Of a DNA stretch of 64,000 nt, positions 22,176-64,000 are shown piece after piece (position 1 is the first letter of the stretch; every line of letters begins with the position of its first letter). A program made the translations under genes and the position numbers. The notes under the pieces are model-generated. The model searched no databases and was not told the DNA's origin. It was given only the letters and a program-made list of their open reading frames with translations. Source of the stretch: an uncultured Actinomycetota bacterium (GTDB lineage Bacteria; Actinomycetota; Actinomycetes; Actinomycetales; Kineosporiaceae); the NCBI GenBank assembly GCA_963794075.1, contig CAWCCY010000005.1, positions 11,678-75,677 on the forward strand, given 5' to 3'.

Positions 22176-25100
22176 TCAGACGAGGCAGCTCGGCCCGAGC
22201 AGGGCCTTCAGGTCGCCGAAGAGCGCCGGTGTGGGGGCGACGCGGAGCCCGTCGTCGAGACGCATCAGCGTCGTGCGCCCGCTCTGGGTGAGGCGCAGGT
22301 GCACCTCGGTGGGGCCCGGGTGGGTGGCCAGCACGTCCTTGAGGCGCTCCACGACGGGCGGCGTGCACCGCGTCACCGGCAGCGAGACCACGACAGGGCC
22401 GCGCGGCCCTTCGTCGAGGTCCGGCAGAGTGAGCTCGGCCGCGTAGATCGTGGGGACGTCGTCACGCCGGTTCACCCGCCCACGGACGACGACGACCAGG
22501 TCCTCCGCGAGGACGTGCGAGACGGTCTGGTACGCCTGCGGGAAGAACAGGACCTCGATGGCGCCGTCCAGGTCTTCGACGGTGGCGATGGCCCACGGGT
22601 TGCCGTTCTTGGTCATCTTGCGCTGCAGGCGAACTGATCATCCCCGCGATCGTGACGGTGGCGCCGTCGGGCCGGCCGTCGTCGGCCGTGAGCGCGGCGA
22701 TCGGGGTGTCGGCCGCCCGGGCGAGGATGTGCTCGACGCCGAAGAGCGGGTGGTCGCTCACGTAGAGGCCGAGCATCTCGCGCTCCGACGAGAGCAGGGT
22801 CTGCTTGTCCCACTCCCCCTCGGGTACCGGGGGCACCACGGACAGGCTGGGCCCGTCGCCGTCGAGGCCGCCGAACAGCGAGTCCTGCCCGATGGCCTCC
22901 TGGCGCTTGTCGGACGACCACGGCGTCGACGGCGCCCTCGTGCACCGCCACCAGACCGCGCCGGGTGTGCCCGAGGGAGTCGAACGCACCGGCCTTGATG
23001 AGCGACTCGATGGTCCGCTTGTTGCAGACCACGACCGGCACCTTGCGCAGGAAGTCCTCGAACGAGGCGTAGCGGCCCTTCTCTGCGCGGGCCGCCACGA
23101 TGGCGTCGACCACGTTCGCGCCGACGTTGCGGATCGCGGTGAGGCCGAAGCGGATGTCGGTGCCGATCGGGGTGAAGTTCGCCGCGGACTCGTTGACGTC
23201 GGGCGGGAGCACCTTGATGCCGAGCCGGCGGCACTCGTTCAGGTACAGCGCCGACTTGTCCTTGTCGTCCCGCACGCTCGTGAGGAGCGCCGCCATGTAC
23301 TCGGCCGGGTAGTTCGCCTTGAGATAGGCGGTCCAGTAGGAGACCAGGCCGTACGCCGCCGAGTGCGCCTTGTTGAACGCGTAGTCGGAGAACGGCACCA
23401 GGACGTCCCACAGCGCCTTGATCGACGCGGCGCTGAAACCGCGCTCCAGCATCCCCTGCTCGAACCCGACGTACTCGGCGTCGAGCACGGAGCGCTTCTT
23501 CTTGCCCATCGCCCGGCGCAGCAGGTCGGCCTTGCCGAGCGTGTACCCGGCGAGCTGCTGGGCGATGGCCATGACCTGTTCCTGGTACACGATCAGGCCG
23601 TACGTCGTACCCAGGATGGGCTTCAGCGCCTCGGCCAGGTCGGGGTGCAGGTAGGTGACCTCCTGCTGCTTGTTCTTGCGCAGGGCGTAGTTCGTGTGCG
23701 AATTGGCGCCCATCGGCCCGGGGCGGTAGAGGGCGCCGACGGCCGAGATGTCCTCGAAGTTGTCGGGCCGCATGAGCCGCAGCAGCGCCCGCATCGGGCC
23801 GCCGTCGAACTGGAAGACCCCGAGCGTGTCGCCGCGGGCGAGCAGGTCGTACGTGGCGGGGTCGGTCGGGTCCTTCGAGAGCTCGTCGAGGTCGATGTCG
23901 ACGTCGCGGTTGGCCTTCACGTTGACGAGCGCGTCGTCGAGGATCGTCAGGTTGCGCAGCCCGAGGAAGTCCATCTTGACCAGCCCGAGCGACTCGCAGG
24001 TCGGGTAGTCGAACTGCGTGATGATCTGCCCGTCCTGCTCGCGCCGCATGATCGGCACCAGGTCGATCAGCGGCTCGCTGGACATGATGACGCCGGCGGC
24101 GTGCACGCCCCACTGGCGCTTCAGGTTCTCGAGGCCGCGCGCCGTCTCGACCACACGGGCGACGTCGGGGTCCGACGCGTGCAGCTGGCGGAACTCCTCC
24201 GCCTCCTTGTAGCGGGGGTGCTCGGGATCGAAGATGCCCGACAGCGGGATGTCCTTGCCCATCACGGCCTGCGGCATGGCCTTCGTCATGCGCTCGCCGA
24301 GGGAGAACGGGTAGCCCAGCACGCGGCCGGCGTCCTTGAGGGCCTGCTTGGCCTTGATCGTGCCGTAGGTGACGATCTGCGCGACGCGGTCGTCGCCGTA
24401 CCGCTCGGTGACGTAGCGGATCACCTCGCCCCGCCGGCGCTCGTCGAAGTCGACGTCGAAGTCGGGCATGGACATGCGCTCGGGATTGAGGAAGCGCTCG
24501 AAGATCAGGCCGTGCTGGAGGGGGTCGAGGTCGGTGATCCGCATCGCGTAGGCGCACATCGAACCGGCACCCGAGCCACGGCCGGGCCCGACCCGGATGC
24601 CGTGCTCCTTGGCCCAGTTGATGAAGTCGGCGACCACCAGGAAGTAGCCCGCGTAGCCCTTGGACGTGATGACCTCGAGCTCGTACGCCGCCTGCTTGCG
24701 CACCGCGTCGGGGACGCCCTGGGGGTAGCGGCGATGGAGGCCTGCCTCGACCTCCTTGACGAACCAGGACTCCTCGTTCTCACCGGGGGGGCAGGGGAAG
24801 CGGGGCATGTACTGCCCCTCCCCCTCGGTGAACGTGACGTCGCAGCGTTCGGCGATGAGGAGGGTGTTGTCGCACGCCTCGGGGAGCTCGCGCCAGAGGT
24901 GGCGCATCTCCTGCGGGCTCTTGAGGTAGAACTCGTCGGCGTCGAACTTGAAGCGTTTCGGGGTCGGCGAGCGTCGACCCGGACTGCACGCACAGCAGGA
25001 CGGCGTGGGCCTGCGCGTCCTCCGCCCGGGTGTAGTGCAGGTCGTTCGTCGCGACGAGCGGCAGGCCGAGGTCGCGTGCCAGGCGCAGCAGATCCTGCTG

Positions 25101-28498: not shown

Positions 28499-28589
28499 GC
28501 ACGTCCCGCCGAGCCACGGCGCACCGAGCGCCCCACCTCAGGCCGCCCCCCGCACCGACCGGCGGCCCTGCTCCGAGGAGTCTCACGTC

Positions 28590-33672: not shown

Positions 33673-34193
33673 TCAGCTCTGGTTGAAGAAGGTCCGCTCG
33701 GGCACGTGCTGGGGCTTCTCGGCCGGCGTGACCTCGACGTGCGACGGCGACAGCAGGAAGACCTTGCTCGTCACCTTCTCGATGGCCCCGTGCAGGCCGA
33801 AGACGAGGCCGGCCGCGAAGTCGACCAGGCGCTTGGCGTCGGCGTCCGCCATGTCCCCGAGGTTCATGATGACCGGGGTCCCGACCTGAACGACTCGCCG
33901 ATCGTCTTCGCCTCGTTATACGTGCGGGGGTGGATCGTCGTGATGCGGTGGAGCTCTCCCATCGGAGCCGGCGCGGGCACGACACGCGCAGCCCGGGCAC
34001 TCGCGATCGGGGTCACCGCGGCGCGGCGCTCCAGCTCACGCGGTTCGGGGCGCCGTGGCTCCTCGATCGTGTCGTCGGCCACCTCGTCCTCCGCCTCGTA
34101 CTCCGGGTCGTCCTCGGCGTCGTAGGCGTCGTACCGCTCGTCGTCCTCGGCGAGGCCCAGGTACACCATGGTCTTACGTAGCGCGCCGCCCAT
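33673..34193 (-). pseudogene. sepF: cell-division protein SepF, one frame break (G-run one base short) as sequenced
   Basis: ORF 33864..34217 (MGGALRKTMVYLGLAEDD...[20 protein letters not shown]) continues in ORF 33673..33867 ((GTPVI)[32 protein letters not shown]). Break at the ccc run, 33880-33882. Confidence 0.85.
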
Positions 34194-35761: not shown

Positions 35762-35775
35762 CCCTCGAGCGTGCC

Positions 35776-40067: not shown

Positions 40068-41236
40068 CGGGCGCTCCGGCGCTCCGTCGCCGGCGAGGCC
40101 TCTGCGACAGCCAGGTCGACGAGGTCGGCCAGCCGCTCGTCGCCGTCCGTGATCCCGAAGGCCGCGGCGGCCTTGCTCATGGCGGCGAGCTCGCCGGGGT
40201 CGGTGAGCAGCGGCAGCAGGCTGTCGCGGACCCACTGCGGCGTGCACTGCGCGTCGTCGACGAGCAGGCCGCCGCCGGCCTCGACCACCGGCTCGGCGTT
40301 GAGCCGCTGCTCGCCGTTCCCGATGGGCAGCGGCACGTAGGCGGCCGGCAGGCCGACCGTCGTCAGCTCGCAGACGGTGCCGGCACCCGCCCGGCAGACG
40401 ACCGCGTCGGCGGCGGCGTACGCCAGGTCCATCCGGTCGACGTACTCCACCGCCACGTACCGCGGCCGCGCGCCGGAGCCGGGCGCCCCGCCCGCCGAGA
40501 GGTCGGCGAACAGGTCAGCGGAGGCGTCGGCGAGACCCTCGACGGTCTTGCCGCGCCCCGTCACGTGCAGCACCTGGACACCCGCGTCGGCGAGCACGTC
40601 GCGGGACTGACCGAAGGTCACGTTGAGGCGCTGGGCGCCGAGCGAGCCGCCGAAGACGAGCAGCGTGGTGCGCCGGGGATCGAGCCCGAACCTCGCCAGC
40701 GCCTCGTCGCGCCGCGCCGACCGGTCGAGCCGGGTGATCTGCTGCCGCAGCGGCATCCCGATCACGCGGGCCCCCCGGAGCGGGGTGCCGGGGAAGGTGG
40801 TGGCGACGTACGGGGTGAACCGCGCACCGAGCCGGTTGGCGAGGCCGGGGCGGGCGTTCTGCTCGTGCACGACGATCGGCAACCCGAGCCGGCGGGCGGC
40901 GAGGTAGGCGGGGGTCGAGACGTAGCCGCCGAACCCGACGACGACCTGGGCGGCGGCCTCGTCCATGGCGCGTGAGGCGGCGGCGATCGCGGCGCGCAGC
41001 CGCCACGGCAGCCGGCCGAGGTCGGCCGAGGGCCTGCGGGGCAGCGGGACGCGGGGCACGACGGCGAACGGCAGGCCCGCCTCGGGCACCAGCCGGGCCT
41101 CCAGCCCCTCGGCGGTGCCGAGGGCGGTGACGCGGACGCCGGGGTCACGCCGGCGCAGGCAGTCGGCCAGCGCCAGCAGCGGCGCGACATGGCCGGTGGA
41201 CCCGCCGCCCGCGAGGATCACCGACATCGAGCTCAC
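40064..41236 (-). CDS. murG: undecaprenyldiphospho-muramoylpentapeptide beta-N-acetylglucosaminyltransferase
   Basis: ORF 40064..41236. ILAGGGSTGHVAPLLALAD, GFGGYVSTPAYLAA, VHEQNARPGLANR, CRAGAGTVCELT. Confidence 0.95.
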   Translation of the reverse strand: MSSMSVILAGGGSTGHVAPLLALADCLRRRDPGVRVTALGTAEGLEARLVPEAGLPFAVVPRVPLPRRPSADLGRLPWRLRAAIAAASRAMDEAAAQVVVGFGGYVSTPAYLAARRLGLPIVVHEQNARPGLANRLGARFTPYVATTFPGTPLRGARVIGMPLRQQITRLDRSARRDEALARFGLDPRRTTLLVFGGSLGAQRLNVTFGQSRDVLADAGVQVLHVTGRGKTVEGLADASADLFADLSAGGAPGSGARPRYVAVEYVDRMDLAYAAADAVVCRAGAGTVCELTTVGLPAAYVPLPIGNGEQRLNAEPVVEAGGGLLVDDAQCTPQWVRDSLLPLLTDPGELAAMSKAAAAFGITDGDERLADLVDLAVAEASPATERRSAR

Positions 41237-44067: not shown

Positions 44068-45149
44068 TGGCCCACCACCCACTCGGCGTAGAACACGCCC
44101 AGGCCGAGCCCGACGAAGAGCCCGGCGATGATCCAGAACCGGATGACGATCGTCACCTCGGCCCATCCGGCCAGTTCGAAGTGGTGCTGCAGCGGCGCCA
44201 TCCGGAACACCCGTTTCCCGGTGAGCTTGAACGACCCGACCTGGATGACGACCGACAGCGTGATGAGAACGAACAGGCCGCCGAGGAGCACCAGCAGCAG
44301 CTCGGTGCGGCGACGTGATCGCCAGCCCGGCGAGCGCCCCGCCGAGGGCGAGCGAGCCGGTGTCGCCCATGAAGATCTTCGCCGGCGACGGCGTTCCACC
44401 AGAGGAAGCCGAAGCACGATCCCAGCGCGGCCGCCGCGACGACCGCGAGGTCGCGGGGGTCGCGTACCTCGTAGCACTGCACGCCCGGCCGCTCCAGGCA
44501 GGAGTTGTTCGACTGCCAGATCCCGATCAGCACGTACGCGCTGAACACGAGCACGCGAGGCGCCGGTGGCGAGGCCGTCGAGCCCGTCGGTGAGGTTCAC
44601 CCCGTTGCTCCAGGCGGCGATCATGAGCAGCGCCCAGATCACGAACAGCACCAGCCCGACGGCGGCTCCCGCGAACGCGAGGTCGATCCCGGTGTCGCGG
44701 ATGAACGAGATCCGGGTCGAGGCCGGCGTCCGGAACGAGGTGCTCGGGAACTGCGAGCGCGAGCAGCGGCGAACGTGATGGCCACGGCGGACTGCCCGGC
44801 GAGCTTGGCGCCGGCGCGCAGCCCCAGGCTGCGCTGCCGCGAGATCTTCAGGTAGTCGTCGAGGAAGCCCACGATGCCCAGCCCGGTCATGAGGAACAGC
44901 ACGAGCACCGCCGACATCGTCGGCTCCCACATCGTCGCCCCGTGCGCGACGGCGTAGCCGAGCAGGGTCGCCGCCGATGATCACGGCGCCGCCCATCGTC
45001 GGCGTGCCGCGCTTGGTGTGGTGCCCGGTCGGCCCGTCGTCGCGGATGAACTGGCCGTACCCGCGCGCCACAGGAACCGGATGTAGAGCGGGGTTCCGAA
45101 GAGCGAGCAGACCAGGCGCGACCGCAGCCGCGATGAGGACGGTCTTCAC
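44064..45149 (-). pseudogene. mraY: phospho-N-acetylmuramoyl-pentapeptide transferase MraY, at least seven frame breaks as sequenced
   Basis: Conserved MraY sequence must be followed through ORFs 44064..45341, 44639..44932, 44153..44554 and 42526..44370 plus one short unlisted frame. See the finding for the segment list. Confidence 0.85.
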
Positions 45150-46590
45150 GCGGCGGTCCCCCGGCCCCACGGGGGACGTCGTCGAGCAGGGCGGCCGCGA
45201 CGACGTCGAGGCCGACCGACCTGGAGGCCTTGACGAGGACGACGTCACCGGGGGCCAGCTCCGCGCGCAGCAGGGCGAGGGCGGCGGCGGCGTCCGGCAC
45301 CCAGGCCGACTCCTCACCCCAGGACCCCTCCTGGCCCGCACCGGTGTGGATCGCGCGCGCGCCGGCGCCGACCGCGACGAGCCGGGAGATGTCGAGGCGG
45401 ACGGCCAGCCGGCCGATCCGGTCGTGCTCGTCGAGCGCGTCGGCGCCGAGCTCGAGCATCTCCCCGAGGACCGCCCAGGTGCGGCGTCCGGCCGGTCGCG
45501 CGGTGTGCGCCCTCGGGCCGGCCCATCGCGGCGAGCGCCTTCAGCGCGGCGCGCACCGAGTCGGGGTTCGCGTTGTACGCGTCGTTGACGACGGTGACGC
45601 CGTCGGCGCGGGTGGTGACCTCCATCCGCCAGCGGCTCGCCGGCCGGGCGCCCGAGAGGAGCTCGGCGATCCGGGCCGGCGACAGGCCCGCCTCGAGCCC
45701 GACGGCGGCGGCGGCGAGCGCGTTCGCGACGTGGTGCTCCCCGTGGAGCAGCAGGGCGACGCGTGCGCTGCCCTGGGGACAGGAGAGGGTGAACGAGGGC
45801 CGCGACCAGGCGTCGAGGCTGACGTCGTCCGCGCGGACGTGCGCGTGCGGCGCGCGGCCGGTCAGGACCACCCGGCCCCGGGTGCGCGCGGCCATGGCGG
45901 CGACGAGCGGGTCGTCGGCGTTCAGCACCGCCACGCCGCTCTCCCCCACGGCCGCCGGCAGCTCGCCCTTGGTGGCGGCCGTCGCCTCCCGCGAGCCGAA
46001 GACGCCGGCGTGGGCGGCGCCGACGTTGAGGACCACGGCGACGTCGGGCGGCGTGATCCGGGTGAGGTAGGCGATGTTGCCGGGCCTGCGCGCACCCATC
46101 TCGGCGACCAGCCAGCGCGTGCCCTCGTCGCAGCGCAGCGCCGTCAGGGGCAGCCCGATCTCGTTGTTGAGCGAGCCGACCGGCGCGATCGTCGGCCCGA
46201 CGGCGCCCAGCAGGACCGCCAGCAGGTCCTTCGTACTCGTCTTGCCGGACGACCCGGTGACGCCGACGACGCGCAGGTCGGGCAGCGCGTCGACGACGTG
46301 CCGGGCGAGGGCGCCCAACGCTTCGAGCTGATCGGGGACGACGACGCAGGGGGCGTCGACCTCGCGGCCGGCCAGGACGGCCACCGCCCCCGCCGCGACG
46401 GCCTCGGCGGCGTGGTCGTGGCCGTCGGCCCGGGTGCCCTCGAGCGCGACGAAGAGCGCGCCCGGCGCGGCCTGCCTGCTGTCGACGACGACGGGCCCGG
46501 TGACGACGGCGTCCTCGGCCAGGTCTCCCGCTCCCCGGCGAGCCGGCCGCCGGTGACCGCGGCCAGCTCGGGCAGCCCGATCGCGATCAC
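45146..46590 (-). pseudogene. murF: UDP-N-acetylmuramoyl-tripeptide--D-alanyl-D-alanine ligase MurF, three frame breaks as sequenced
   Basis: [19 protein letters not shown] is in ORF 46144..46590. [17 protein letters not shown]...[14 protein letters not shown]...[10 protein letters not shown]...ALAAMG is in ORF 45314..46384. [23 protein letters not shown]...[12 protein letters not shown] is in ORF 44887..45459. The inferred stop TGA 45146-45148 overlaps the mraY GTG and sits in a third frame. Breaks near 46527-46529, 45481-45486 and 45150-45185. Confidence 0.85.
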
Positions 46591-48160
46591 CGGGCCTCCC
46601 GCTCGGCGGCCTCGTCGAGCGCGGCGCGCAGGGCGGTGCGGTCGTCGAACGGGTGGACCACGCCTGCGACCTCCTGGCCCTGCTCGTGTCCCTTGCCCGC
46701 GACGAGGACGACCCCGCCGCCCCAGGCGCGGCGCACGCCCTGCGCGATCGCCTCGGCCCGGCCGGGCACCTCGAGCACGGTGGCGCCGCCGGCGGCGGCC
46801 TCGCGCCGGGCGCCGTCGAGCAGGGCCGCGCGGATCGCCGCCGGGTCCTCCGAGCGCGGGTTGTCGTCGGTCACGACCACGACGTCGGCGCCCCGCGCGG
46901 CGGCGGCGCCCATCAGCGGGCGCTTCTCACGGTCGCGGTCGCCGCCGGCGCCGAGCACGACGACGAGCGGGCCGCCCGCGCCGGGCGCCGCGCCGTGCAG
47001 GGCCGCGAGCGCCTGGTCGACGGCGTCCGGGGAGTGGGCGAAGTCGACGACCGCCAGCGGGGCACCCGGCGGGCGGCCCGGCTCCCCGACGCGTTCCATC
47101 CGCCCGGGCACCGGGCCGGCGACGGCCAGCGCCTTGGCGGCGTGCTCCGCGTCGAGCCCCGCCTCCACCAGGACGGCGAGGGCGAGCAGGGTGTTGGCCA
47201 GGTTGAAGCGGCCCGGCAGGGGGCTGCGCAGCTCGATGTCGATGCCGGCGGGGCCGGCGACGCGGGCCACCGACAGGCCGGCGTCCGACCGTCCGAGACG
47301 ACGCGCCAGTCCGCGGCAGCCGCCGCACCCGGCCGTGTCGCGACGGTGGTCACCGGCACGCGTGTCACGCTCGCGGCGAGCCGGGCGCCGGCCTCGTCGT
47401 CGACGCAGACCACGCCGCGGCGGGAGTGTTCGGGGGTGAAGAGGGACGCCTTGGCCGCGAAGTACGCCTCCATCGACCCGTGGAAGTCGAGGTGGTCCCG
47501 GCTGAGGTTGGTGAAGGCCGCCACGTCGACCACGAGGCCGTCGACGCGGTGCTGCGCGAGCGCGTGGCTGGAGATCTCCATCGAGCACACCGTCACGCCG
47601 CGCTCGACCATCACGGCGAGCAGGGCGTGCAGGTCCGGGGCCTCCGGTGTGGTGCCCGTCGACGGGATGCGCAGCCCCCCGGCCCGCAGCTCGACGGTCC
47701 CGACCAGGCCGGTGCGCCGGCCGGCGGCCCGCAGCGCCGCGTCGAGCAGTGTCGTGCTCGTCGTCTTGCCGTTCGTGCCGGTCACGCCGAGCGTCAGCAG
47801 CTTCGCCGCCGGCTCGCCGTAGAGCCACGCGGCCAGGGAGCCGAGGACGGCCCGCGGCTCGGCCACGACGGCGACCGGCAGGCCGGCGGCCGCGGCCGGC
47901 CCGGCGCCGGCCGGATCCGTGAGGACGGCCACCGCACCCGCCCGCGCCGCCTGCTCGGCGTACTGCGCACCGTGGGTGCGTGACCCGGGGAGCGCCGCGT
48001 AGAGGTCACCGGGCCGCACCGCCCGCGAGCTGAGGGTCACCCCTGTCACCGGGGCCGCGGGCTCCGGCCGGCGCAGCGGATCGAGGCCCAGGTACGCGAG
48101 GACCTCGGCCAGGGGCCGGGGGACGACGTGGTCGGGGCGGGGGCCGCCGGGGATCGGCAC
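46587..48160 (-). pseudogene. murE: UDP-N-acetylmuramoyl-L-alanyl-D-glutamate--2,6-diaminopimelate ligase MurE, one frame break as sequenced
   Basis: ORF 46913..48160 (..LGVTGTNGKTTSTTL...CSMEISSHAL...FTNLSRDHLDFHG...) continues in ORF 46587..47828 (..SDAGLSVARVAGPAGIDIELRSPLPGRFNLANT...DFAHSPDA...GAGGDRDREKRP..GKGHE). Break at 47283-47297. Start GTG 48160 is tentative. Confidence 0.85.
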
Positions 48161-48178
48161 GATGCGTCAGGCTACCGG

Positions 48179-50496: not shown

Positions 50497-51134
50497 TCAG
50501 TGCTTCGCGGCCGCCGTCCCGGGCTTCGGGCCGGCCGCGGTCCCGGCCGCCGTGTGCTTCGCCGTCGGCGTGCCCGCAGTCGGTTTGCCGGCCGCTGCCG
50601 CCGTGCCCGAGTCGGCTTGCCGGCCGCTGCCGCCGTGCCCGAAGCAGTTACTTTGGGCTTGACCGTGTTGACCGTAGGTGACGGTGGCGGCGTGGCCTTC
50701 TGCGCCACGCCGAGGGTGCGGCCGTCGGGCAGCACGAACGGCACCCCGGGCGCGGCGTCGACCATGCCGAGCCGCCGGGCGCTCCCGGCGAGCGCGTCCG
50801 GCGCCTCCAGCCCCCGGAGCTCGAGGGTGACCTTCTGCGCCTGCTCGCGCAGCTGCTCCGCCCGCGTGCTCTGGTCGCGCAAGTCGTAGGCGCCTCGCTC
50901 GAGGCTGACGTTGAGCAGGAGCAGCCCGACCAGGCCGACGAGGAGCAGGCAGACGCACACCACGACGAGCCCCGCCCGGCTGCGCGTGTGCCGCGGTGCG
51001 CTGACCGCGCGGAGCCGCGGCGCGGGCGCCGCGAGCCGGGCCGGGTGGCGCGGCGCCGAGCGCGCCGCCGGGCGGGCCGCCGGCCGCGGGGCCGTCCTCG
51101 GAGCCGTCTTCGTTGCCGCTGCCGACTGGCTCAT
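50497..51134 (-). pseudogene. ftsL: FtsL-like septation protein, frame-shifted by a 32-bp tandem duplication in its tail
   Basis: ATG 51134 overlaps the inferred rsmH stop (ATGA). [16 protein letters not shown]...[72 protein letters not shown]... Removing one copy of 50579-50642 restores a 201-aa ORF ending at TGA 50497. Confidence 0.65.
50579..50642. repeat. 32-bp tandem duplication (one mismatch)
   Basis: gtcggtttgccggccgctgccgccgtgcccga (50579-50610) followed by gtcggcttgccggccgctgccgccgtgcccga (50611-50642). Confidence 0.95.
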
Positions 51135-52209
51135 GCCGCATCCCCTCCCGCTGCTCCCCGGGCGCCCGCCGCGCGGGCACCCGTCGTCCGCCGGGCACGA
51201 TCCGTCCGCCGCCCGGCAGTGGCCCCCCCGGGCCTGATCCGTTCGCGCTGCCCGCAGCCGCACCGACGCGGCCCGCGGGTTCTCCTCGATCTCGGCCGGC
51301 GAGGCCGTCTCGGCACCCCGCGTCAGCAGCCGCAACCGCGGCGCGTGCTCGGGCGGCTCGACCGGCAGCCCGGGCGGGGCGGTGCTCGCCGCCCCGGCCG
51401 CCAGCACCCGCTTGGCGATGCGGTCCTCCAGCGAGTGGTACGCCAGGACGACGATGCGACCGCCGACGGCGAGCGCGTCGACCGCGGCGGGGACCGCCCG
51501 CCGAGGACCTCGAGCTCGCCGTTGACCTCGATCCGCAACGCCTGGAAGGTGCGCTTCGCCGGGTTCCCGCCGACCCGCCGGGTGGCCGCGGGCACGTTGG
51601 CGCGGACGACGTCCACGAGGCGCGCGCTCGTCGTGAAGGGCACGCGCTCGCGCTCGCGCACCACGGCCTTGGCGATGCGCAGGGCGAAGCGCTCCTCGCC
51701 GTAATCGCGCAGCACCCGGGCCAGCGCGCGCGGCGTCGTAGGTGTTGAGGAGTCCGCCGCCGTCGCGGCCGGCCGTCGGGTCCATCCGCATGTCGAGGGG
51801 GGCGTCGACGGAGTACGCGAAGCCGCGGTCGGCCTCGTCGAGCTGGAGCGAGGAGACGCCGAGGTCGAAGAGGACGCCCTGCACCTGCGGCGCCGATGCC
51901 GAGCTCGGCGAGGACGTCAGGGATGTCGTCGTACACCGCGTGGACGAGCCGGACCCGCGCACCGAAGGGCGCGAGCCGGCGCCCCGCGAGCGCCAGGGCC
52001 TGCGGGTCGCGGTCGATGCCCACGAGGGTCGCCGCCGGGCACTGCTCGAGCAGTGCCTCGGAGTGACCGCCCATGCCCAGCGTGGCGTCGACGACGACCG
52101 AACCCGGCTCGACCAGGGCCGGGGCCAGGAGCGCCACGCAGCGCCGGAGCATGACCGGCACGTGCCGCTCGCGCGCGTCGTCACCGCCCGGTGTGCCCGT
52201 GCCCGCCAT
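51131..52209 (-). pseudogene. rsmH: 16S rRNA (cytosine1402-N4)-methyltransferase RsmH, four frame breaks as sequenced
   Basis: [39 protein letters not shown]...AELGIGA is in ORF 50497..52209. [36 protein letters not shown] is in the 48006..52184 frame. [22 protein letters not shown]...[14 protein letters not shown] is in ORF 51323..51715. [31 protein letters not shown]...[12 protein letters not shown] is in the 48006..52184 frame again. ERIRPGG...* is in the ORF 51131..51316 frame. Confidence 0.85.
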
Positions 52210-52433
52210 CTCGACCCTCCTCGTGGCGCTAGCGCCCGCCCTGCCGCCGTGCCCGCGTGCGCCCCTGCCGTCCGCCGCGGGCGGACGCCGACCGGCGGTC
52301 AGGTCTCCCTCCGCTCCGGCCGGCCTGACACCGGGGAAGTGCGTCAGGACGTCGTAGCGGCTGGAGACCTCACCGCCGGTGCATGGCCCACCAGCTGATC
52401 CACCAGCTGGTCAGCAGGTGATCCACGGAACTG

Positions 52434-53328: not shown

Positions 53329-54417
53329 GTGCTGGCGGGTGCCGCGGTCGATGTCGTCGGGGCAGAAGGAGCCGTGTTGACCACCACGCCGATGTCGCTC
53401 GACGCGTTCCTCCACACCACGGCGTCGATCCGGTCCGCGGTCGAGACCGTCCTCGACGGCAAGCCCGAGGTCGTCGACCTCGCCGTCACGGTGCTGGTCG
53501 CCGAGGGCCACCTGCTGCTCGAGGACGTCCCGGGCGTCGGCAAGACCATGCTCGCCAAGGCGCTCGCGCGCGTCGATCGGCTGCGTCGGTGCGGCGCATC
53601 CAGTTCACGCCCGACCTGCTGCCCGAGCGACATCACCGGCGTCAGCGTCTACAACCAGGAGCGCAAGGACTTCGAGTTCAAGCCGGGCGCGGTCTTCGCC
53701 AACGTCGTCGTCGGCGACGAGATCAACCGCGCCAGCCCGAAGACGCAGTCGGCGCTGCTCGAGTGCATGGAGGAGCGCCAGGTCACCGTCGACGGCGTCA
53801 CCTACCAGCTGCCGCCGCCGTTCATCGTCGTCGCCACCCAGAACCCGATCGAGATGGAGGGGACCTACCCGCTGCCCGAGGCGCAGCGCGACCGCTTCAT
53901 GGCCCGCGTGTCGATGGGGTACCCGTCGGCCGCGGCCGAGAGCGAGATGCTCGACCGGCACGCCGGCAGGGACCCGCTGGCCGAGCTCGCCCCCGTGACC
54001 GACGCCGAGACCGTGCGCGACCTCATCCGGACGGCGCGCGGCGTCTACGCCTCCCCCGCGGTCAAGGAGTACGTGGTCGAGATCGTCCGCGCCACGCGGT
54101 CGACGTCCGACCTGCGCCTGGGCGCCTCCCCGCGCTCGGCCCTCCACCTGCTCCAGGCGGCCAAGGCGAGCGCGGCGATGGCCGGCCGCGAGCACGTCCT
54201 GCCCGACGACATCCGCGAGCTGGCGCACGCCGTCCTCGCGCACCGCCTGCTGCCCAGCGCGGACGCGGTGCTCGCCCGCCGGAGCCCCGAGGACGTCCTG
54301 AGCGCCGTGCTCACCCAGGTCGGCCCAGCCGCGCGCGCGGGCCAGCGCCTGAGGCCGCTCGTCGGCGACGACACCCGCGGGCGGGTCCACGGAGCCGAGC
54401 CGGATCCGGCTCGGTGA
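53329..54417 (+). pseudogene. moxR: MoxR-family AAA+ ATPase; ORF open but contains three compensating +1 insertions within 55 nt
   Basis: ORF 53329..54417. LLEDVPGVGKTMLAKALAR, then a scrambled stretch where SIGC / SVRRIQFTPDLLP / SDITGVSVYNQ lie in three different frames (53572-53626). The rest is normal (FANVVVGDEINRASPKTQSALLECMEE, ATQNPIEMEGTYPLPEAQRDRF). The start may be 53374 or 53392 instead. Confidence 0.85.
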
Positions 54418-55708
54418 CCTCGACCATGCGCGGCCGGTCCTTCCTCGCCGCAGGTGTCACCGCCGTTCTCTGCGCCCTCGTGCTCGACCAGCGCGACCTG
54501 CTGCGCGTCGGGATCCTGCTCGTGGTGCTGCCGATCGGCGCGCTGGTCGCCACCAGCCGGTACCGCTACCGGCTCGCGCTCAAGCGGACGATCTCCCCGG
54601 CCCGGGTCGTCGCCGGCACGACCGCGCGCGTGCGCCTGGAGCTCGAGAACCTCACCCGGCTGTCGACCCGGGTGCTGCTCGCGGAGGACCGCGTGCCCTA
54701 CGCGCTGGGGCCTTCCCCGCGGTTCGTGCTCGCCCGGCTCCCGGGGGGCCGCCGTGCGGCCGTCACCTACACCCTGCGGTCGGAGCTGCGCGGCCGTTAC
54801 GCGCTGGGGCCGCTGCGGCTCCGCCTCACCGACCCCTTCGGCATGTGCGAGGTCGCCCGCTCGTTCACCGGCGTCGACCAGCTGATCGTCGTCCCCCGGC
54901 GTACCCCCTGGCCGGCGGTCGGCGGCGGCGGCCAGTGGTCGGGCACGGGCGACTCGCTCACCCGCAGCGCGGCCGCGTCGGGCGAGGACGACATCACGAC
55001 CCGCGAGTACCGCTACGGCGACGACCTGCGGCGGGTGCACTGGCGCTCGACCGCGCAAGCGGGGCGAGCTGATGGTGCGCCGCGACGAGCAGCCCCGGCA
55101 GATGCGCGCGACCGTGCTCGCTCGACAGCCGCTCGGTCGGCCACCGGGGCGACGGCCCGGCCTCGAGCTTCGAGTGGGCGGTGAGCGCGGCGGCCTCCGT
55201 CGCGGTGCACCTGGCCGGGCACCGGTACGGCTTGCGGCTGCTCCTCGACGGCCGGCCGGCGGGGTGGGCGACGGCCGACGCCGGCGGACGGCGGCGGCGC
55301 CGTCCTCGACGACCTCGCGGTCGTGCGGCTCGGCGGGCCCCGCGAGCTCGCCGACGCCGTCGGCGACGCTGACGCGCACCGGCGGCGACGGCATGGTCGT
55401 GGCGGTCCTCGGCGAGGCGCCGCAGGACGAGGTGAACGCGCTGCGCCGCGCTGGGCCGGCACGGTGCCCGCGGGGTCGCGATCCTGCTGCGCACGACGGA
55501 ATGGTCGGCCGGCCTGCCCGAGCGGCGCGCCGCCGAGCTCGACGAGCAGCGCGCCCACAACGCCGAGGTCCTGCGCGCCGGCGGCTGGTCCGTCGCCGAG
55601 GCCGGCGCGGCCGATCCCGTGCCCGAGGTCTGGGCGCGCGCCGCCGCATCGCTCCCCCTCCGCCGGCCCCGGCCGGCCCCGCATGGTCGTCGTCCCCACC
55701 GGCGGTGA
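54414..55708 (+). pseudogene. DUF58 (vWA-like) protein, five successive +1 frame breaks as sequenced
   Basis: GTG 54414 overlaps the moxR stop (GTGA). The N-terminal part is in ORF 53589..55184 (...REYRYGDDLRRVHWRSTA). It then continues as KRGELMVRRDEQPRQMRATVL (frame 1), LDSRSVGHRGDGPASSFEWAVSAAASVAVHLAGHRYGLRLLLDG (frame 2), DGGGAVLDDLAVVRLGGPRELADAVG (frame 0), TLTRTGGDGMVVAVLGEAPQDEVNALRRAG (frame 1) and HGARGVAILLRTTEWSAGLPERRAAELDEQRAHNAEVLRAGGWSV...* (frame 2, TGA 55706-55708). Confidence 0.8.
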
Positions 55709-55711
55709 ATC

Positions 55712-58083
55712 GTGACAGCGTCCGCGTCGGTCCGGCTCGCGACGGCGGGCTGGATCGCCACCATGCTCGCGAGCATGACGATCTTCCCGCTCGTGCAGGG
55801 CGGGGGCTGGTGGCTCGCCCTCGGCATCGTGGCCGCGGTCGTGGCCGGCACCGGCCTGCTGGTGCGGCGCTTCACCTCCTCGCCGGCGCTGGTGGTCGCC
55901 ACCCAGGTCGCGATGTGGGCCGTCGTCATGACGGTGATCTTCCTGCCACGGCAGGCGTACGCCGGCCTGCTCCCCGGGCCCGACGCGATCGACGGAGGGC
56001 CGCCGGCTCTTCGACCTCGGTCTGCGCGTGATGCACCGGGCGGCCCCGCCGGTCGACGACACCCCGGGCGTCATCTTCGTGACCGCGGGCGGTCTGACTC
56101 TGGTCGCCCTGCTCGTGGACGTCCTCGCGGTGACCTTGCGCCGACCGGCCGTCGCCGGCCTGCCGCTGCTCGCCGTCTACTGCGTGCCGGCCGCCGTCCT
56201 GCCCGACGGTCTGCCCTGGCCCTACTTCCTGCTGGCCGCGCTGGGCTTCCTGGTGCTCGTCGGCGTCGACTCCGTCGACCGGGTGCAGGCCTGGGGGCGG
56301 GTGCTGGCGGGCACCGACTCGCAAGGCCGGTCGAGCATCGCCTTCGGCGGCGCGCGCAAGATCGCCTCGGTCAGCCTGGCCTTCGCGGTCGTGCTGCCGC
56401 TGCTCGTGCCGGGGCTGGGCGAGCGGGTGCTGGGCGAGCACTCCGGCACGGGCGTGGGCAAGGGCGCCGGCGGTGGCGCCGTCGTGCTCAACCCGCTGCT
56501 GAACCTGCGGCAGGACCTGACGGCACCGAGCGACGCCCCCCTCTTCACGTACCAGACGACGATGACCGATCCGCAGCCGCTGCGGGTCGTCGTCGACGAC
56601 GTCTTCACGGGGGACACCTGGGAGCCGTCGACGACGTCGGTGCCGCAGGACCAGCGGCCGCAGGCCGGGGCTCCCGACCCCGAGGGCCTGACGGACGACT
56701 CCGTCGCACGGCAGCGCCAGACGACCGACGTGACCATCGGGAACCTCGCCCAGTCGTACCTCCCGCTGCCGTACCCGTGGAGCAGGGTCGCCGTCAAGGG
56801 CGACTGGTACTACGACCTGTCCACCCGGACCGTGGTCGGCACGGGGCAGACGACGCAGGGGCTGAGCTACACGGTCGACCACTTCACGGTCGGGGCGACG
56901 GCCGCGCAGCTGCGGTCGGCGCCCGGGCCCGACCCCGCGATCCTCGAGCGGTACACGCAGCTGCCCCAGGGGATGGACCCTCGAGATCGCCAAGCTGGCC
57001 GCGACGCACGCGCGCACGGGCACGGCCTTCGACCAGGCCGAGAACCTGCGGAACTGGCTGCGGACGTTCACCTACTCCCTGGACGCCCCCGGCAACGGGC
57101 CGGACGACAGCGGCATGGACGCCGTGCTCGCCTTCCTCAAGGAGCGCAAGGGGTACTGCGTGCACTTCGCCTCCGCCATGGCCGTCATGGCGAGGACGCT
57201 CAACATCCCGTCGCGCGTGGTCGTCGGGTTCCTCCCTGGCACGCAGGACGAGCAGGGCACCTGGACGGTCCGCCTCAAGGACGCCCACGCCTGGCCGGAG
57301 CTCTACTTCCAGGGGGTCGGCTGGGTGCGCTTCGAGCCGACGCCGGCCGCACGCACCCAGAACGTGGGCGACGTCGTCGGTGGCGGCGCGCAGCAGCAGC
57401 CGACCGCGTCGGCCGGCGCGCAGCCCACCGCGAGCGCGTCGGCGACCAACGGCCGGCGGAAGCCGGAGGACCCGACCCCCGGGTCGACGGCGGCGGCGAC
57501 GGCGGGCGCCCAGGTGGCCGGCTGGCGCCGGGTCGCCGACGCCCTGCCGTGGCCGTGGCTCGCCGCCGGCGGGGTGCTGGTGCTGGCCGCCCTCGCGCCG
57601 ATGCTGGCCGCCGGGCTGAGCCGCCGGCGACGGTGGCGGGCCGCGGAGAGCCGCGCCGGCCGGGCCGAGGCCGCGTTCGACGAGCTCGCGGAGCGCCTCG
57701 CCGATCTGGGGTTGCAGGTGTCACCGGCGTGGACCCCCCGGGAGCTGCGGCAGTGGCTGGTCGGCGCCGAGCACGTCCCCGCGAACCGGACGGAGTCGCT
57801 CGACCGCATCGTCGGCGCGCTGGAGTCGGCGCGCTACGCGCCCCCCGGCGGCGACGGGCCCCCGGCGGGTGAGCTGCGTGACGCCGTGGACGAGGTCGTG
57901 CGTGTGGTGGCGGAGCAGGTGCCGGCGGGCCGCCGGCGGCTCGCCCGGTTCCTGCCGCGGTCGGGTGTCCGCGCGCTCACGCGCGCGGCCCGGCAGGCGG
58001 ACGTCGTGGCGGAGGACGCCGGCCGGCGGGTGCTCGACCAGGTCGACGAGGTGCGCAAGCTGGTGGGCGGGCGGCGGCGGTAG
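55712..58083 (+). pseudogene. transglutaminase-like membrane protein (TgpA/DUF3488-type), two +1 frame breaks as sequenced
   Basis: ORF 55712..57619 holds the N-terminal TM part. ORF 56028..57872 holds the middle (RLFDLGLRVMHRAAPPVDDTPGVIFVTAGG...). ORF 57115..58083 holds the C-terminal part with the core KGYCVHFASAMAVMARTLNIPSRVVVGF...DAHAWPELYF. Breaks near 55997-56000 and 56978-56980. Confidence 0.8.
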
Positions 58084-58778: not shown

Positions 58779-60068
58779 TCAGGACGCTGGGCGCCGCTCC
58801 GACATTCCAGCGGATCGGTTCGAGCCGTCGGGGACGAGCGTCGCCGGCCGGACGGCGCCCGCGCCGAAGCGGGCGCTGGCGCGGTCGACGGCCCGCTCGG
58901 CCTCACGCCAGCCCTGGGGCGCTCGTCGAGGGCCAGCTGCCGGTGCCCGCTCGCGGCGGCGCCCAGCCCCTCGACCCGGACGCCGACCAGGCGCAGCCGG
59001 GCCCGCTCGAGCCCGAGCCGCTGGAAGAGTCGCGGGCGCGTGGCGTAGACGACCCGGCGCGACGTCGGTGGGCTCGCCCAGGGTGCGCGACCGGGTGATG
59101 GTCGTGAAGTCGGCGAACCGCACCTTGAGGACCACCGTGCGCCCGACGGCGTCGCCCGCGCGCAGCCGCGCGGCGACCCGCTCGGACAGGCGGAGCACCT
59201 CGCGCAGGACGACCTCGGGGTCGTCGACGTCCTGCGCGAAGGTCTCCTCCGCGCCGACGCTCTTCTCGACGTGTTCGGCGACGACCGTGCGGGGGTCGCG
59301 ACCCCAGGCGAGCGCGTGCAGGTGGGCGCCGGCCGCCTCCCCCAGCGCCCGCTTGAGGGTGTCGAGCGGGGTGTGCGCGATGTCGGAGACGGTGCGCAGC
59401 CCGAGCCGCTGCAGCGTCTCCTCGGTCCGCTCGCCCACTCCCCAGAGCGCTCCCACCGGCAGCGGCGTGCAGGAAGGGCACGGTCTCGTCGCCGGGGACG
59501 ACGAGCAGGCCGTCGGGCTTGGCGCGCGCGGAGGCGAGCTTGGCGACGAACTTCGTGGTGGCGACGCCGACCGAGCAGGTGATCCGCTGCTCGTCGGCGA
59601 CCCGGTCGCGGATCAGCTGGGCGATCACGGACGGGCGGCCCAGCCGGCGCACGGCGCCGGAGACGTCGAGGAAGGCCTCGTCGAGGCTGAGAGCGGCTCG
59701 ACCAGCGGCGTCACCGACCGGAAGATCTCCATCACCCCGCGGGAGACCTCGGGGTAGCGGTCGTGGTCGGGCTCGACCACGACGGCCTGCGGGCACAGCC
59801 GGCGGGCCCGGCCCATCGGCATCGCCGAGTGCACGCCGAACGCGGCGGGCCTCGTAGGTCGCCGAGAGCACGACACCGCGGCTGCCGCCCCCGCCGACGA
59901 TGACGGGCGGACCCGCAGATGCGGGCGGTCGATCAGCTCGACCGAGGCGTAGAACGCGTCCATGTCGACGTGCAGGACCGTGCAGCCGTTGTCGTCGCCG
60001 GAGAGCGAGGCGCGGTCGTCGGCCCGGCGCGGTCGAGCTGGCGGCGGCTCACGTGCTACCCGTGCCAT
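58779..60068 (-). pseudogene. dinB: DNA polymerase IV (DinB), six frame breaks as sequenced
   Basis: Starts at ATG 60068. VLHVDMDAFYASVELIDRPHLR / G.PVIVGGGGSRGVVLSATYEAR / FGVHSAMPMGRARRLCPQAVVVEPDHDRYPEVSRGVMEIFRSVTPLVEPLS / LDEAFLDVSG...CSVGVATTKFVAKLASARAKPDGLLVV / PLPVGALWGVGERTEETL...VLKVRFADFTTITRSRTL / RVVYAT..LFQRLGLERARLRLVGVRVEGL / QGWREAERAVDRASARFG. These alternate among ORFs 59625..61337, 58903..59871, 58779..59456 and an unlisted frame. Confidence 0.85.
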
Positions 60069-60069
60069 C

Positions 60070-60867
60070 TCAGCCCGGCGCGTCGGGCGCCGGGCGCCCC
60101 GCTGCAGGACGACGTGGAGCTGGGCGGCAGACGGCCGCGAGTTCGGGGTGCTCGCTCGCGGCCCGCTCGAGGTCGAGCAGGCCGCGGCCGGCGTCGGGGT
60201 CGCCGTCGACGAGCGCACCGGGGAGCAGGTCGGTGACGAGCCGGACACCGTGGGCGGCTCGCAGCCTGACCGGCTCGGCCGCGAAGAGCGCCAGCAGGCC
60301 GGCGCGGTCGAACCGGCGGGCGATCGGGTCCTGCGGGCCCGTGCGCCCGTCGGGGTCGTCGAGCAGCCGGCGGGCCGCGGCGAACCGGCCCGAGAGCGCC
60401 CGGCGCCGAGCAGCGCACCCGATGCCGCTGGGCGACGAGCACGCTGACCAGGCCGCCGGGGCGGAGCACCTCGAGCATGTCGAGGACCGCCGCCTTCGGG
60501 TCGTCGACGTGCTCCAGCACGCCGTGGCACAGCAGAAGATCGGCCGAGGAGGGGCCGACCACCGCTGCGAGGGCGCCCGCGTCGCCCTGCTCGGCCCTGA
60601 CGCGCACCGGCCACGCCGGCCTCGGCCGCGCGGCGCTGGAGCGCGGCGAGCGCGTCGGGGCTGGGGTCGACGACGATGACGCGGTGGCCGAGCCCGGCGA
60701 GCGGCACGGCGAAGCCGCCGGTGCCGCCGCCGACGTCGACGACGTCCAGCGGGCACCGGTCACCGGTCTCGCGCAGCAGGGTGTCGAGGACGCCCCAGAC
60801 GACGGCCGTCCGGACGGCCTGGCGCGGATCGGCGCGGGCCGCCCAGCGGCGACGGTTCGTCGGACAC
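60070..60867 (-). pseudogene. class I SAM-dependent methyltransferase, at least five frame breaks as sequenced
   Basis: GGGAGA-N6-GTG at 60867. VVWGVLDTLLRETGDRCPLDVVDVGGGTGGFAVPLAGLGHRVIVVDPSPDALAALQRRAAEAGV (570-aa ORF frame). RVRAEQGDAGALAAVVGPSSADLLLCHGVLEHVDDPKAAVLDMLEVLRPGGLVSVLVAQRH (ORF 60056..60763). ALSGRFAAARRLLDDPDG...LLDLERAASEHPELAAV (ORF 60070..60756). AAQLHVVLQRG (570-aa ORF frame). The stop is assumed to be TGA 60070. Confidence 0.7.
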
Positions 60868-61003
60868 GGCCGGTCTCCCAGCGGGGCGAGGGGGCGGGGC
60901 TGACCAGGCCACCCTAGCGACGACGGGTGACACGGCCGAGGAGCGCGCGCTGCCGTCACCCGTGCGTGCTCGGCGCTCCCGGCGATGGCCCCCGCGAGTG
61001 CGC

Positions 61004-64000
61004 TCACCGGCCCGAGCTCCCGGGGCTCGCGTGCCAGAGCTTGCGCGGTGCTTCGCCGCGGCGGCGGTCCGCACGGTCCTGCGAGGTCTCGGCGGCGGTC
61101 ATCCGGCGCGTGTCCCGGGTCTGCTCGCCGGGGGTCCCCACGTCGGCGTACGGCGACTGGCGGTACCCCGTGGCGTGCTCGACCAGCACCCGGCGGTACC
61201 CCGGACCGCCACCCATGCCGCCCGCCCGGCGCTGGCCGCGCCCCCGTTCCCGCCCGCGGCGGCCGCGGCGGCCGCGGGCCGCCTCGGGTCGTCCCGGTCG
61301 CCGACCGGGAGCCCGGAGGCCGCGACCTCCTGCTCACGGTCGTAGGGCGCGTCGATGCTGACGCCGAACTCGGTGACCGGCGGTCGGGCGAGCACCGGCC
61401 TGGCCGAGTGGCTGGCGGCGGCGCCCGTCACCGCCGCCGGGGTGGCACCGGCCCACCCGGGCGTCGCGTCGAGCAGGGCGCTGACGGCCTCGCGGCCGCC
61501 GTCGATCCAGGCGTCCCACAGCACGGGCAGCTCCCAGGCACCGGTCGCACGCAGGCTGACCCCGCGGGGGCCGGTGCGCCGGAGCACCCCGCGCACGACG
61601 AGGAGCCAGGAGTGGAACACGGTGGCCGCGTACGGCCCCTGCACGTCCTCGAAGAAGGTCGCGTCGACCGGGCCGGTCGCGTCGTCGAGGGTGAGGAAGA
61701 CGACCCGGCGCCCCGAGCGGATCGGCGGGGTCTGGGTGGCGACCTTGACGCCGGCGACGAGCAGGTCGGCCCGGCTGCGCCGCTGCAGCAGATCGCGGGA
61801 GCGCGTGACGCCGAGCGCGTCGAGCAGCGGGCCGTAGAAGTCGAGCACGTGCCGGCTGGCGTCCAGGCCCAGCACCTCGAGCTCGGCCCGGACCCGCTCG
61901 GCGCCCGTCATCTCGGCCAGCCCCGCGGGCGCGGGTCTCGTCGGGCGCGTCGCCGAGGTCGAGGGCGAGCTGCACGGGCTGCAGCCGCGCCGGCGGCGCG
62001 GCCGCGGAGCCTGCGACTGGCGGGCGGCCGCCGCGCGGACGACGTCCGGCGCCTCGGTCGCCGGCGCCGAGGCTCGCGGCCCGCGCCTGGCCGCGTGCCG
62101 CGTGCCGGGAGCCGCGCACGCCGCGCGTGCGCCCGCGGTCGGCGGCACGGGTCCAGCGGTCGAGCTCGGCGACCTGGAGCAGCAGGTCGCGCCGGGTGAC
62201 CCGGCCGCGGCGGCGGACGGGGACCGGCGACCCGAGGCCGTAGAGGGTGTCGAAGCCGCCGGCCACGACGAGCCGCTCGACGACCGGGCGGGACACCCCG
62301 GCGCGGTGCCAGAAGTCGGCGAGCGAGTGGTAGGGCCGGCCCGCGACGATCCGCTCGACCTCGGCGTCGGTGATGCCCTTCACGTCGGCGAGGGAGAGCC
62401 GGATGCCGTAGGCGCGCCCGTCGGGCAGGTCGGGATGCGCGGCGCTCCGCGCGGCGGCTCGGGGTCCCCGAGCTGGTCAGGACCCGCGGCGGCGGCTCGT
62501 CCCACCAGGTCACCTTCTCGACGCGGTAGGTCGCCTGGGAACGGTTGACGTCGAGCGGCAGCACGGCGATGCCGAGGTTGCGGGCGTCGTCGAGGATCAG
62601 CCGCTTGGGGTACATCCCGGGGTCGTGGGTGAGCACGCCGGCGAGGAACGCCGCCGGGTGGTGCGCCTTGAGCCAGGCGGACTGGTACGTCGGCAGCGCG
62701 AAGGCCGCGGCGTGCGCCTTGCAGAACCCGAACGAGGCGAAGGCCTTGAGCACCTCCCAGACCCGGTCGACCGTCGCCTCGTCGAAACCCTGCGCCGCGG
62801 GCCACGCGGGCGGAACCACTGCCTCGACCTCGGCCTGCCCCTCGCGGCTGCCGAGGGTGCGCCGGACCTCGTCGGCCTCGGCCAGCCCGCACCCGGTCAT
62901 CTCGTCGATGATCTCGCAGCACCTGCTCGTGGAAGACGACGACGCCGCCGGTCGGCGCCAGCGCCTGCTCCAGGCGCGGGTGCAGGTAGTCGGCGCTCGT
63001 CCCAGCCCTGCCGGGCCCGCAGGAACGGGGTGACCATGTCGGACTTCACCGGGCCGGGCCGGAACAGCGAGATGTCGATGACGAGGTCGAGGAAGGTCTC
63101 GGGGCCGAACTTGCCGACGAGCTCGCGCTGGCCCGGCGACTCGATCTGGAAGCAGCCGAGGGTGTGGGCGGTCCGGATCAGCCGGAACGTCGGCCTCGTC
63201 GTCGTGCGGGACGGCGTCGAGGTCGATCCGGCCGTGGCAGCGTCGAGGTAGGGCGCGTCGGGGCGTGGCCGCCGGCGCGACGCGTCGGCCCGTCGACCCG
63301 GGCGATCTCGTCGAGCGCGTACGCCATCGCCGACTGCATCCGGATGCCGAGGACGTCGAGCTTGAGCAGCCCCATCTGCTCGACGTCGTCCTTGTCGAAC
63401 TGGCTCATCGGGAAGCCGAGCCAGCTGGCCTCGACCGGGGTGCGGTCGAGCAGGCTCGCGTCGGAGATGAGGACCCCGCAGGGGTGCAGCGCGACGTGAC
63501 GGGGCAGCCCGTCGAGCCGCTCGACGAGGTCGAAGAGCACGTCGAGGCGCGACGAGGCGATGCCCGGAGGCACGCAGCTCGGGCAGCTCGACGAGGGCGT
63601 GCCGCACGTCGCGGGCCCGGATGTGCGGGAACGACTTGGCGATGACGTCGATCTCGCCGGGCGCAGGCCCGAGCGCGGCGCCGACGTCGCGGATGGCGTG
63701 CCGTACCCGGTAGGTGTCCATCATCGAGACGCAGGCGCACCCGGTCGGTGCCGAAGCGCTGCAGGATCGCCTCGTACACCTCGGTGCGGCGGGCGGACTC
63801 GACGTCGAGGTCGATGTCGGGCAGGGCGATGCGCAGCGGGGTGAGGAACCGTTCCATCAGCAGGTCGTAGCGGATCGGGTCGACGCCCGAGATGCCGAGC
63901 AGGTGGTTGACCAGGCTGCCGGCGCCGGACCCCCGGGCGGCGACCCGGACGCCGAGATCGCCGGACCGTCGCAGACCTCTTCGACGGTGAGGAAGTAGGA
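61004..64000 (-). pseudogene. dnaE2: error-prone DNA polymerase DnaE2 (5' end outside window), about ten frame breaks as sequenced
   Basis: Colinear DnaE2 sequence crosses the frames of ORFs 63405..63857, 62897..63724, 63178..63573, 61908..62900, 61334..62383, 61099..62148 and 61004..61216. In order: SYFLTVEEV.. GDLGVRVAARGSGAGSLVNHLLGISGVDPIRYDLLMERFLTPLRIALPDIDLDVES.. CVSMMDTYRVRHAIRDVG.. LDVLFDLVERLDGLPRHVALHPCGVLIS.. TLGCFQIESPGQRELVG..SLFRPGPVKSDMV.. VVVFHEQVL.. FGFCKAHAAAFALPTYQSAWLKAH.. VKGITDAEVERIV.. VKVATQTPPIRSGRRVVFLTLDDATGPVDATFF.. RRVLVEHATGYRQSPYADV...PRKLWHASPGSSGR*. Confidence 0.85.

Follow-up and report, generated by a model that had tools for sequence, protein, structure and literature searches.

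The window analysed here, a stretch of DNA of 64 kb in its entirety, contains at least about 62 frame-breaking insertions and deletions between 22.6 and 64 kb and none in its first 22 kb; comparison with intact contigs of the same species indicates that these breaks are very probably consensus or assembly errors of the record and not part of the organism's DNA. With a G + C content of about 75%, the window is a segment of an actinobacterial chromosome, and its nearest named relatives are Kineosporiaceae MAGs. Its gene content includes pheST, hisD, dnaE1, the dcw cluster (divIVA-sepF-ftsZ...mraZ, on the minus strand), moxR-DUF58-tgpA, dinB, a methyltransferase gene and dnaE2.

Frame breaks were sought independently of any reference with a codon-usage model trained on the window, using Viterbi segmentation into six frames and a non-coding state, and for each same-strand frame switch the distance to the stop codon of the upstream frame was measured. 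Between 1 and 22.6 kb all switches lay 3-19 nt from a stop, with one exception, and thus represent true gene boundaries; the exception, at 11962, concerns a weak 150-nt segment at 11963-12116, within a small stretch at 11963-12242. Past 22.6 kb, about 50 switches were found 24 to ~3700 nt from the stop of the upstream frame. In the first 22 kb, the Pfam domains of the ten largest ORFs were each complete within a single ORF, examples being PheT, PheS, HisD and an acyltransferase. By our own arithmetic, the chance that 62 uniformly placed events would leave the first 22.6 of 64 kb empty is ~2e-12. Uninterrupted stretches were also found further on, at 25-33.8 kb, 34-42.2 kb and 47.3-50.0 kb, and murG, murC, ftsZ and pbpB are untouched though they are neighbours of broken genes. 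The earlier note on this DNA had put the indels at about fifty, with coordinates and per-gene counts close to ours, and had placed none in the first 22 kb, where the switch distances and the Pfam domains bear it out. The uninterrupted stretches that it named hold as well, and the one at 47.3-50.0 kb with pbpB, which it did not list, is to be added to them.

Different approaches were used for counting in different regions: base-level comparison from 34.0 to 55.2 kb, protein-level alignment for dnaE1 and sepF, and the codon HMM from 55.2 to 64 kb. For protein-level alignment, a frameshift-tolerant protein-versus-DNA aligner was written and run with ORFs from 12 related loci. When MurG was compared with species-representative genomes, no relative above 66% identity was found among the matches listed, and relatives at this distance were usable for protein-level alignment only. 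The best match of DnaE1 to metagenome contigs, among those listed, was 84%, so that 22.6-34 kb has no base-level reference; a search with the SPFH protein for 27-29 kb likewise found no same-species contig, the best match being 90%. The contigs that did serve for base-level comparison were found with the frame-corrected MraY, and comprised one ENA contig (contig_81101 of ERZ25039539, here L081) and JGI contigs from five readable samples, three of which (L082-L084, from three samples) were long enough to be used as references.

Over 34-55 kb, the nucleotide identity of these contigs to the window was 96.0-96.6% (96.3-96.6% for the three JGI contigs); the intact references are therefore of the same species, at ~96% nucleotide identity, but of another strain. 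All dcw genes are full length in the JGI contigs, as is moxR where the contig extends that far, with lengths of 361 aa for rsmH, 216 for ftsL, 569 for pbpB, 524 for murE, 483 for murF, 359 for mraY, 513 for murD, 429 for ftsW and 324 for moxR. A five-way MAFFT alignment revealed 56 indels in the window relative to the JGI contigs, of which 34, located between 34.0 and 55.2 kb, are genic, frame-breaking and present in the window only. They consist of 21 events of +1, eight of -1, two of +2, two of -2 and one of -7, and are distributed over mraY (8), rsmH (6), murF (5), moxR (4), the first part of the DUF58 gene (4), murD (2), ftsW (2), ftsL (1), murE (1) and ftsQ (1), the last being doubtful as it lies in a low-complexity region. 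At all 34 positions the independent ENA contig L081 has the state of the JGI contigs and not that of the window, and the lesions are thus private to the window. Most of the indels common to the window and L081 are in the intergenic DNA between mraZ and moxR, and a few are in the DUF58 gene, ftsQ and the ftsZ linker; they look like natural differences between populations. The events are listed gene by gene in the table.

Table. Frame-breaking events in the window (positions are those of the window; +n and -n give inserted and missing nucleotides)
Feature	Coordinates	Strand	Events	Evidence
Control region	1..22175	.	no frame breaks	codon-HMM switch distances; Pfam
dnaE1	22176..27278	-	three +1, at ~22629, ~22915, ~24962	identical events with 9/9 DnaE1 references
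sepF	33676..34184	-	one -1, at ~33880	10/10 references
ftsW	41233..42522	-	+2 (GC) at 42223; -2 (GG) at 42476	base-level alignment
murD	42526..44070 (ends approximate)	-	-1 at 42724; +1 (G) at 43314	L081 and JGI contigs agree against the window
mraY	44064..45150	-	+1 at 44310, 44388, 44560, 44754, 44767, 44972, 45117; -1 at 45072	protein and base level
murF	45147..46600	-	+1 at 45154, 45175; -7 at 45502; -1 at 45508, 46537	protein and base level
murE	46587..48165	-	one -1 (T), at 47287	protein and base level
ftsL tail	50569..50642	-	32-nt tandem duplication and 1-nt deficit at 50610	TRF; alignment with three-frame translation
rsmH	51212..52215	-	+1 at 51245, 51733, 51765; -1 at 51503, 51752; -2 at 51891	protein and base level
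moxR	53371..54345 (ends approximate)	+	+1 at 53573, 53583, 53624 (net +3); +1 at 54327	base level; Phycicoccus
DUF58 gene	54355..55715	+	+1 at 54363, 54422, 55061, 55121	base level
tgpA (transglutaminase)	55709..58083	+	switches at ~55993, ~56978	codon HMM
dinB	58818..60011	-	switches at ~58921, 59054, 59463, 59690, 59846, 59904	codon HMM
Class I methyltransferase gene	60129..60894	-	at least 2 switches (~60397, ~60608), probably more	codon HMM
dnaE2 (runs off the window)	61076..64000	-	10 switches: 61227, 61926, 62444, 62916, 62995, 63188, 63237, 63567, 63731, 63955	codon HMM

Frameshift-aware alignment against orthologues, which the earlier note had proposed, recovered the breaks, as seen with every reference used for sepF and dnaE1. 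In dnaE1 the stops of the upstream frames are reached 168-300 nt past the switches; this gene also holds an in-frame intein at 25500-26666. For sepF, nucleotide alignment with relatives showed that one base is missing from GGTCCGG in the window. With all or nearly all references, the aligner placed events at ~33880 in sepF, ~42226 in ftsW, ~42704 and 43314 in murD, 44310, 44389, 44555, 44754, 44767, 44975, 45063 and 45116 in mraY, ~45496 and 46529 in murF, ~47277 in murE, and 51245, 51504, 51729 and 51891 in rsmH.

In ftsW the +2 and -2 events compensate each other, leaving an ORF that stays open for all 429 aa although 84 of its codons are read out of frame, and its identity to the JGI protein is, in order, 15/15, 18/85 and 326/348 residues. 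The product of the 84 out-of-frame codons is arginine-rich junk. The duplication in the ftsL tail, which had been reported as 32 bp before, is present in 2.3 copies with 95% matches according to TRF, and the frame is broken within the region of GKPTAG repeats. The moxR insertion at 54327 is near the C-terminus.

Only one contig of the same species was available for 55-64 kb (L167, ERZ25039539). It was rejected as a reference, having 471 gaps relative to the window and called ORFs that are partly out of frame. Since this contig is itself badly damaged, the counts for 55-64 kb rest on the codon HMM, on Pfam continuity and on a distant Phycicoccus locus. The codon HMM reproduces the base-level events of mraY to within a few bases. 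From 55.2 to 64 kb it gave four more switches in the DUF58 gene (~55285, ~55367, ~55444 and ~55661), two in tgpA, six in dinB, at least two in the methyltransferase gene and 10 in dnaE2. The Phycicoccus locus confirmed the moxR events and about six in the DUF58 gene, dynamic programming (DP) against the Phycicoccus DUF58 protein giving six events.

For 55.2-64 kb, joining the frames turned the partial Pfam matches of the raw ORFs into full-length ones. The joined DinB matches IMS over positions 1-147 of 148 and IMS_C over 2-109 of 109, as against 1-95 and 2-70 in the raw ORFs, and the joined methyltransferase matches Methyltransf_11 over 1-93 of 95, as against 1-43 of 95. TgpA_N profile positions 2-74 and 77-327 flank the switch at 55993, and the joined DnaE2 contains DNA_pol3_alpha (41-260 of 260), the finger domain, HHH_6 and the OB fold, in order.

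Once the indels are removed, the encoded proteins share 97-99% identity with intact orthologues. The frame-corrected MraY has 98% identity at 100% coverage to an intact MraY of 359 aa and 97% identity to a second intact match; in this gene the eight indels stand beside 14 substitutions that are mostly synonymous. Substitutions found in the window only fall at codon positions 1, 2 and 3 in the numbers 29, 17 and 102, that is, 69% at the third position (68% for substitutions shared with L081), which indicates that purifying selection still acts on the genes and that they are not drifting as pseudogenes. Genes in the patches have a slight excess of changes at positions 1 and 2 (20/52 versus 15/76, our own tally). 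Joined translations of nine reconstructed genes contain no stop codons.

These data bear directly on genuine pseudogenisation, whether in the organism or in relic DNA of dead cells. The references do come from another strain of the same species, and a difference between strains would suit such a reading. However, the broken genes include essential single-copy genes (mraY eight times, and also murD, murE, murF, ftsW and dnaE1), their frameshifts are not shared by the references, the adjacent murG, murC, ftsZ and pbpB are untouched, and the restored proteins show the near-identity, the prevalence of third-position changes and the stop-free frames just described. Bacterial pseudogenes are usually deletion-biased, and the insertion bias in the window is opposite to this. 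We therefore consider pseudogenisation extremely unlikely. That the frames can be restored at all would also agree with recoding, in which the cell would restore them by programmed ribosomal frameshifting or transcriptional slippage, but nothing beyond this speaks for it: about 60 sites mix +1, -1, 2-nt and 7-nt events and have no motif in common, and none is conserved in the same-species orthologues, all of which are single-frame. The probability of recoding is practically negligible. A frame structure shared by relatives, which the earlier note would have taken as evidence against error, was thus not seen. Its verdict of sequence error or a faulty record, and not of pseudogenes or recoding, agrees with the same-species contigs that lack every break, with the preserved identity and selection of the proteins, and with the similar lesions in sibling assemblies described below.

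The 34 base-level events were used to characterise the lesions. Insertions exceed deletions by 23 to 11. The inserted single bases (n = 21) are nine G, nine C, two T and one A, roughly following base composition, and by codon junction they are distributed 7/7/7. Together, the even junctions and the composition-like choice of base show that the process is blind to coding. It was considered that each insertion might arise where the consensus retained both alleles of a polymorphic third-position site and so contains the site twice; this is rejected by the 7/7/7 distribution. Fourteen of the 21 single-base insertions do not adjoin an identical base, and five of the eight single-base deletions are outside runs. 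No convincing shared motif, such as a methylation site, was found at the indels after multiple-test correction; the top k-mers, GCGA/TCGC in the window and AGCG/CGCT in L081, were marginal after correction and differ from each other. No link of the indels to local GC content was apparent in the window.

This signature departs in several respects from that in the earlier note, which had described each insertion as an extra G or C (true of 18 of 21) and deletions as shortening runs (true of only three of the eight single-base deletions). Its excess of insertions is real, and the ratio, put there at 2-3 to 1, is 23:11 at base level. Nor is the cause that it proposed, GC compression or homopolymer miscalls, supported by events that mostly lie outside homopolymers. 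A classical base-calling artefact of this kind, whether Sanger GC compression or the misjudged homopolymer lengths known from 454, Ion Torrent and early nanopore data, would explain the few events that alter run length: GGGGG to GGGG in murF (46537), CCCC to CCCCC (45175) and GG to GGG (53624). But run length is 1 at 14 of the 21 insertions and five of the eight deletions, and GC compression yields deletions, so that the observed excess of insertions is in the wrong direction. Such an artefact is accordingly very unlikely.

Events that are phase-blind, mostly non-homopolymer, composition-like and without a convincing motif also look like random injection, and we considered whether the record was corrupted after assembly by accidental, deliberate or simulated insertion of small indels. 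A uniform choice of base is rejected (A or T in 3 of 21 insertions), intergenic DNA within the patches is affected as well as genes, and the lesions match those of public contigs in ENA, from this species and related ones, in both style and patchiness, so that an ordinary pipeline origin suffices. Corruption of the record is decidedly unlikely.

Those sibling ENA contigs bear Flye-style 'contig_N' names and have their lesions elsewhere. In L081 there are 90 private indels, most of them +1 and in patches, and the stretch from mraY to murG is clean. Two further contigs, L169 (ERZ25039574) and L170 (ERZ25039577), represent nearly one strain: most of their 1-kb bins are 99.5-100% identical, three of them exactly, but identity falls to 89-95% in patches that contain many indels. 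In both, dnaE1 is fragmented; ftsZ and ylmE are fragmented in L169 only. The names and the behaviour of these contigs fit long-read metagenome assemblies.

The window itself would then most likely come from an under-polished single-molecule long-read metagenome assembly. Stretches of 2-6 kb with ~4-6 small indels per kb alternate in it with essentially error-free ones, and the usual error is a single additional base whose position is independent of homopolymers and codon phase. The bad stretches may have been built from very few or heterogeneous reads, on which polishing would have been ineffective, and the density of indels would fit a consensus drawn from a few fairly accurate long reads or even one. 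We infer both the platform and the cause of the patchy distribution from these patterns; a non-homopolymer signature with a 2:1 bias to insertions is unlike that of classical nanopore data, which makes the platform uncertain. Nanopore indels concentrate in homopolymers, and frameshifting indels in long-read consensus sequences are documented, especially below ~40x coverage (PMC9262707). Frameshifting indels of long reads are also addressed in the publications on proovframe (bioRxiv 10.1101/2021.08.23.457338) and Kastor (PMC12007338).

Damage to dnaE1, dnaE2, rsmH and moxR-DUF58 recurs in two or three independent assemblies, which hints at a region-dependent cause. In addition, the bad patches of L081 contain substitutions enriched at third positions, as if a second haplotype had been blended in. 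For these two reasons we considered that the patches might reflect more than low coverage and mark regions where consensus calling repeatedly fails for physical or populational reasons, such as DNA modification or the collapse of reads from co-occurring close relatives in highly conserved genes. We regard this as unlikely, and real frameshifts in the DNA as far less likely again.

If the breaks are errors, as we believe, they represent no new biology but mark the record as unreliable. Genes between 22.6 and 64 kb need frame correction before they enter annotations, counts of pseudogenes, tests of selection or protein databases. Part of the damage is invisible to gene callers, as in ftsW, where a full-length ORF carries 84 wrong residues. 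Polishing or filtering aimed at homopolymers only would miss errors that are phase-blind, mostly non-homopolymer, insertion-biased and patchy.

Three known systems invite comparison. Degrading genomes, such as those of Mycobacterium leprae and of recent host-restricted pathogens, also have many frameshifted genes in one stretch. Real decay, however, spares essential single-copy genes, is deletion-biased, adds stops and non-synonymous changes, and is common to related strains, traits that are absent from the window. In programmed frameshifting, as in prfB (+1) and dnaX (-1), a functional protein likewise spans two frames, but such a site occurs singly, depends on a motif and is conserved among orthologues, whereas the window has about 60 sites that lack a motif and have no counterpart in its orthologues. 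The indel errors of long-read assemblies, as treated in the literature, stress homopolymer length, whereas two thirds of the insertions in the window lie outside runs, insertions are in 2:1 excess, and the distribution is strongly patchy with 22 kb entirely clean. In the remaining respects the likeness to long-read assembly errors is close: small consensus indels split conserved genes, are private to one assembly, vanish in accurate assemblies, and recur in the same style in the sibling 'contig_N' contigs.

The ftsW gene contains a stretch of 84 codons which is out of frame and is bounded by a compensating +2/-2 pair. As the two shifts offset each other and the length of the ORF is kept (Table), this damage would be missed by a gene caller. 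Within the first 22 kb of the window, a hidden frame problem may be present only at the segment where the codon-usage Viterbi segmentation (HMM) was ambiguous; a Pfam search with the 181-aa ORF located there (12099-12644) found no match.

Table. Coordinates of the features discussed in the window
Feature	Position	Strand	Remarks
Segment with weak or ambiguous coding signal	11963-12643		HMM gives two short segments whose frames differ
Intein in the PHP domain of dnaE1	25500-26666	-	389 aa, in-frame; Pfam Hint_2 and LAGLIDADG_3 matches
SPFH/Band_7-GYF_2 gene and neighbour gene	27335-29714	+	
ftsZ linker	35916-35997	-	Length variation in alignment
ftsQ N-terminal low-complexity region	38409-38422	-	Length variation in alignment
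ftsW ORF	41233-42522	-	429 aa, equal to orthologue length; apparently intact
mraW RNA motif (RF01746)	52281-52386	-	Full-length match, 65.6 bits; upstream of rsmH

The length differences in the ftsZ linker are in-frame, with one of +18 nt and another of -15 nt, the latter being common to L081, an ENA contig of the same species. The N-terminal low-complexity region of ftsQ is also variable, and a 252-nt insertion was found there in L081. The variation at both sites looks like natural variation in repeat number rather than error. The intein of dnaE1 has a lower GC content than its flanking sequence, and is absent from the three related contigs compared over this gene (L168-L170), whose alignments to the window skip from 25497 to approximately 26666-26671.

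The public ENA contigs were found to carry patchy damage of their own, both those of the window's species (L081 and L167, ERZ25039539) and the related L169 and L170 (ERZ25039574 and ERZ25039577). In L081 it amounts to as much as 12-16% mismatches and indels per 500 nt. Inside the damaged patches, substitutions are partly enriched at the third codon position, and they appear as if the consensus had been mixed with reads from a second, more divergent population.

Around the SPFH gene and its neighbour, the genome may be more variable or less sampled than elsewhere. Of these two genes, only the SPFH protein was searched; its top database match is 90%, versus relatives of 97-98% for MraY of the division and cell-wall (dcw) cluster.
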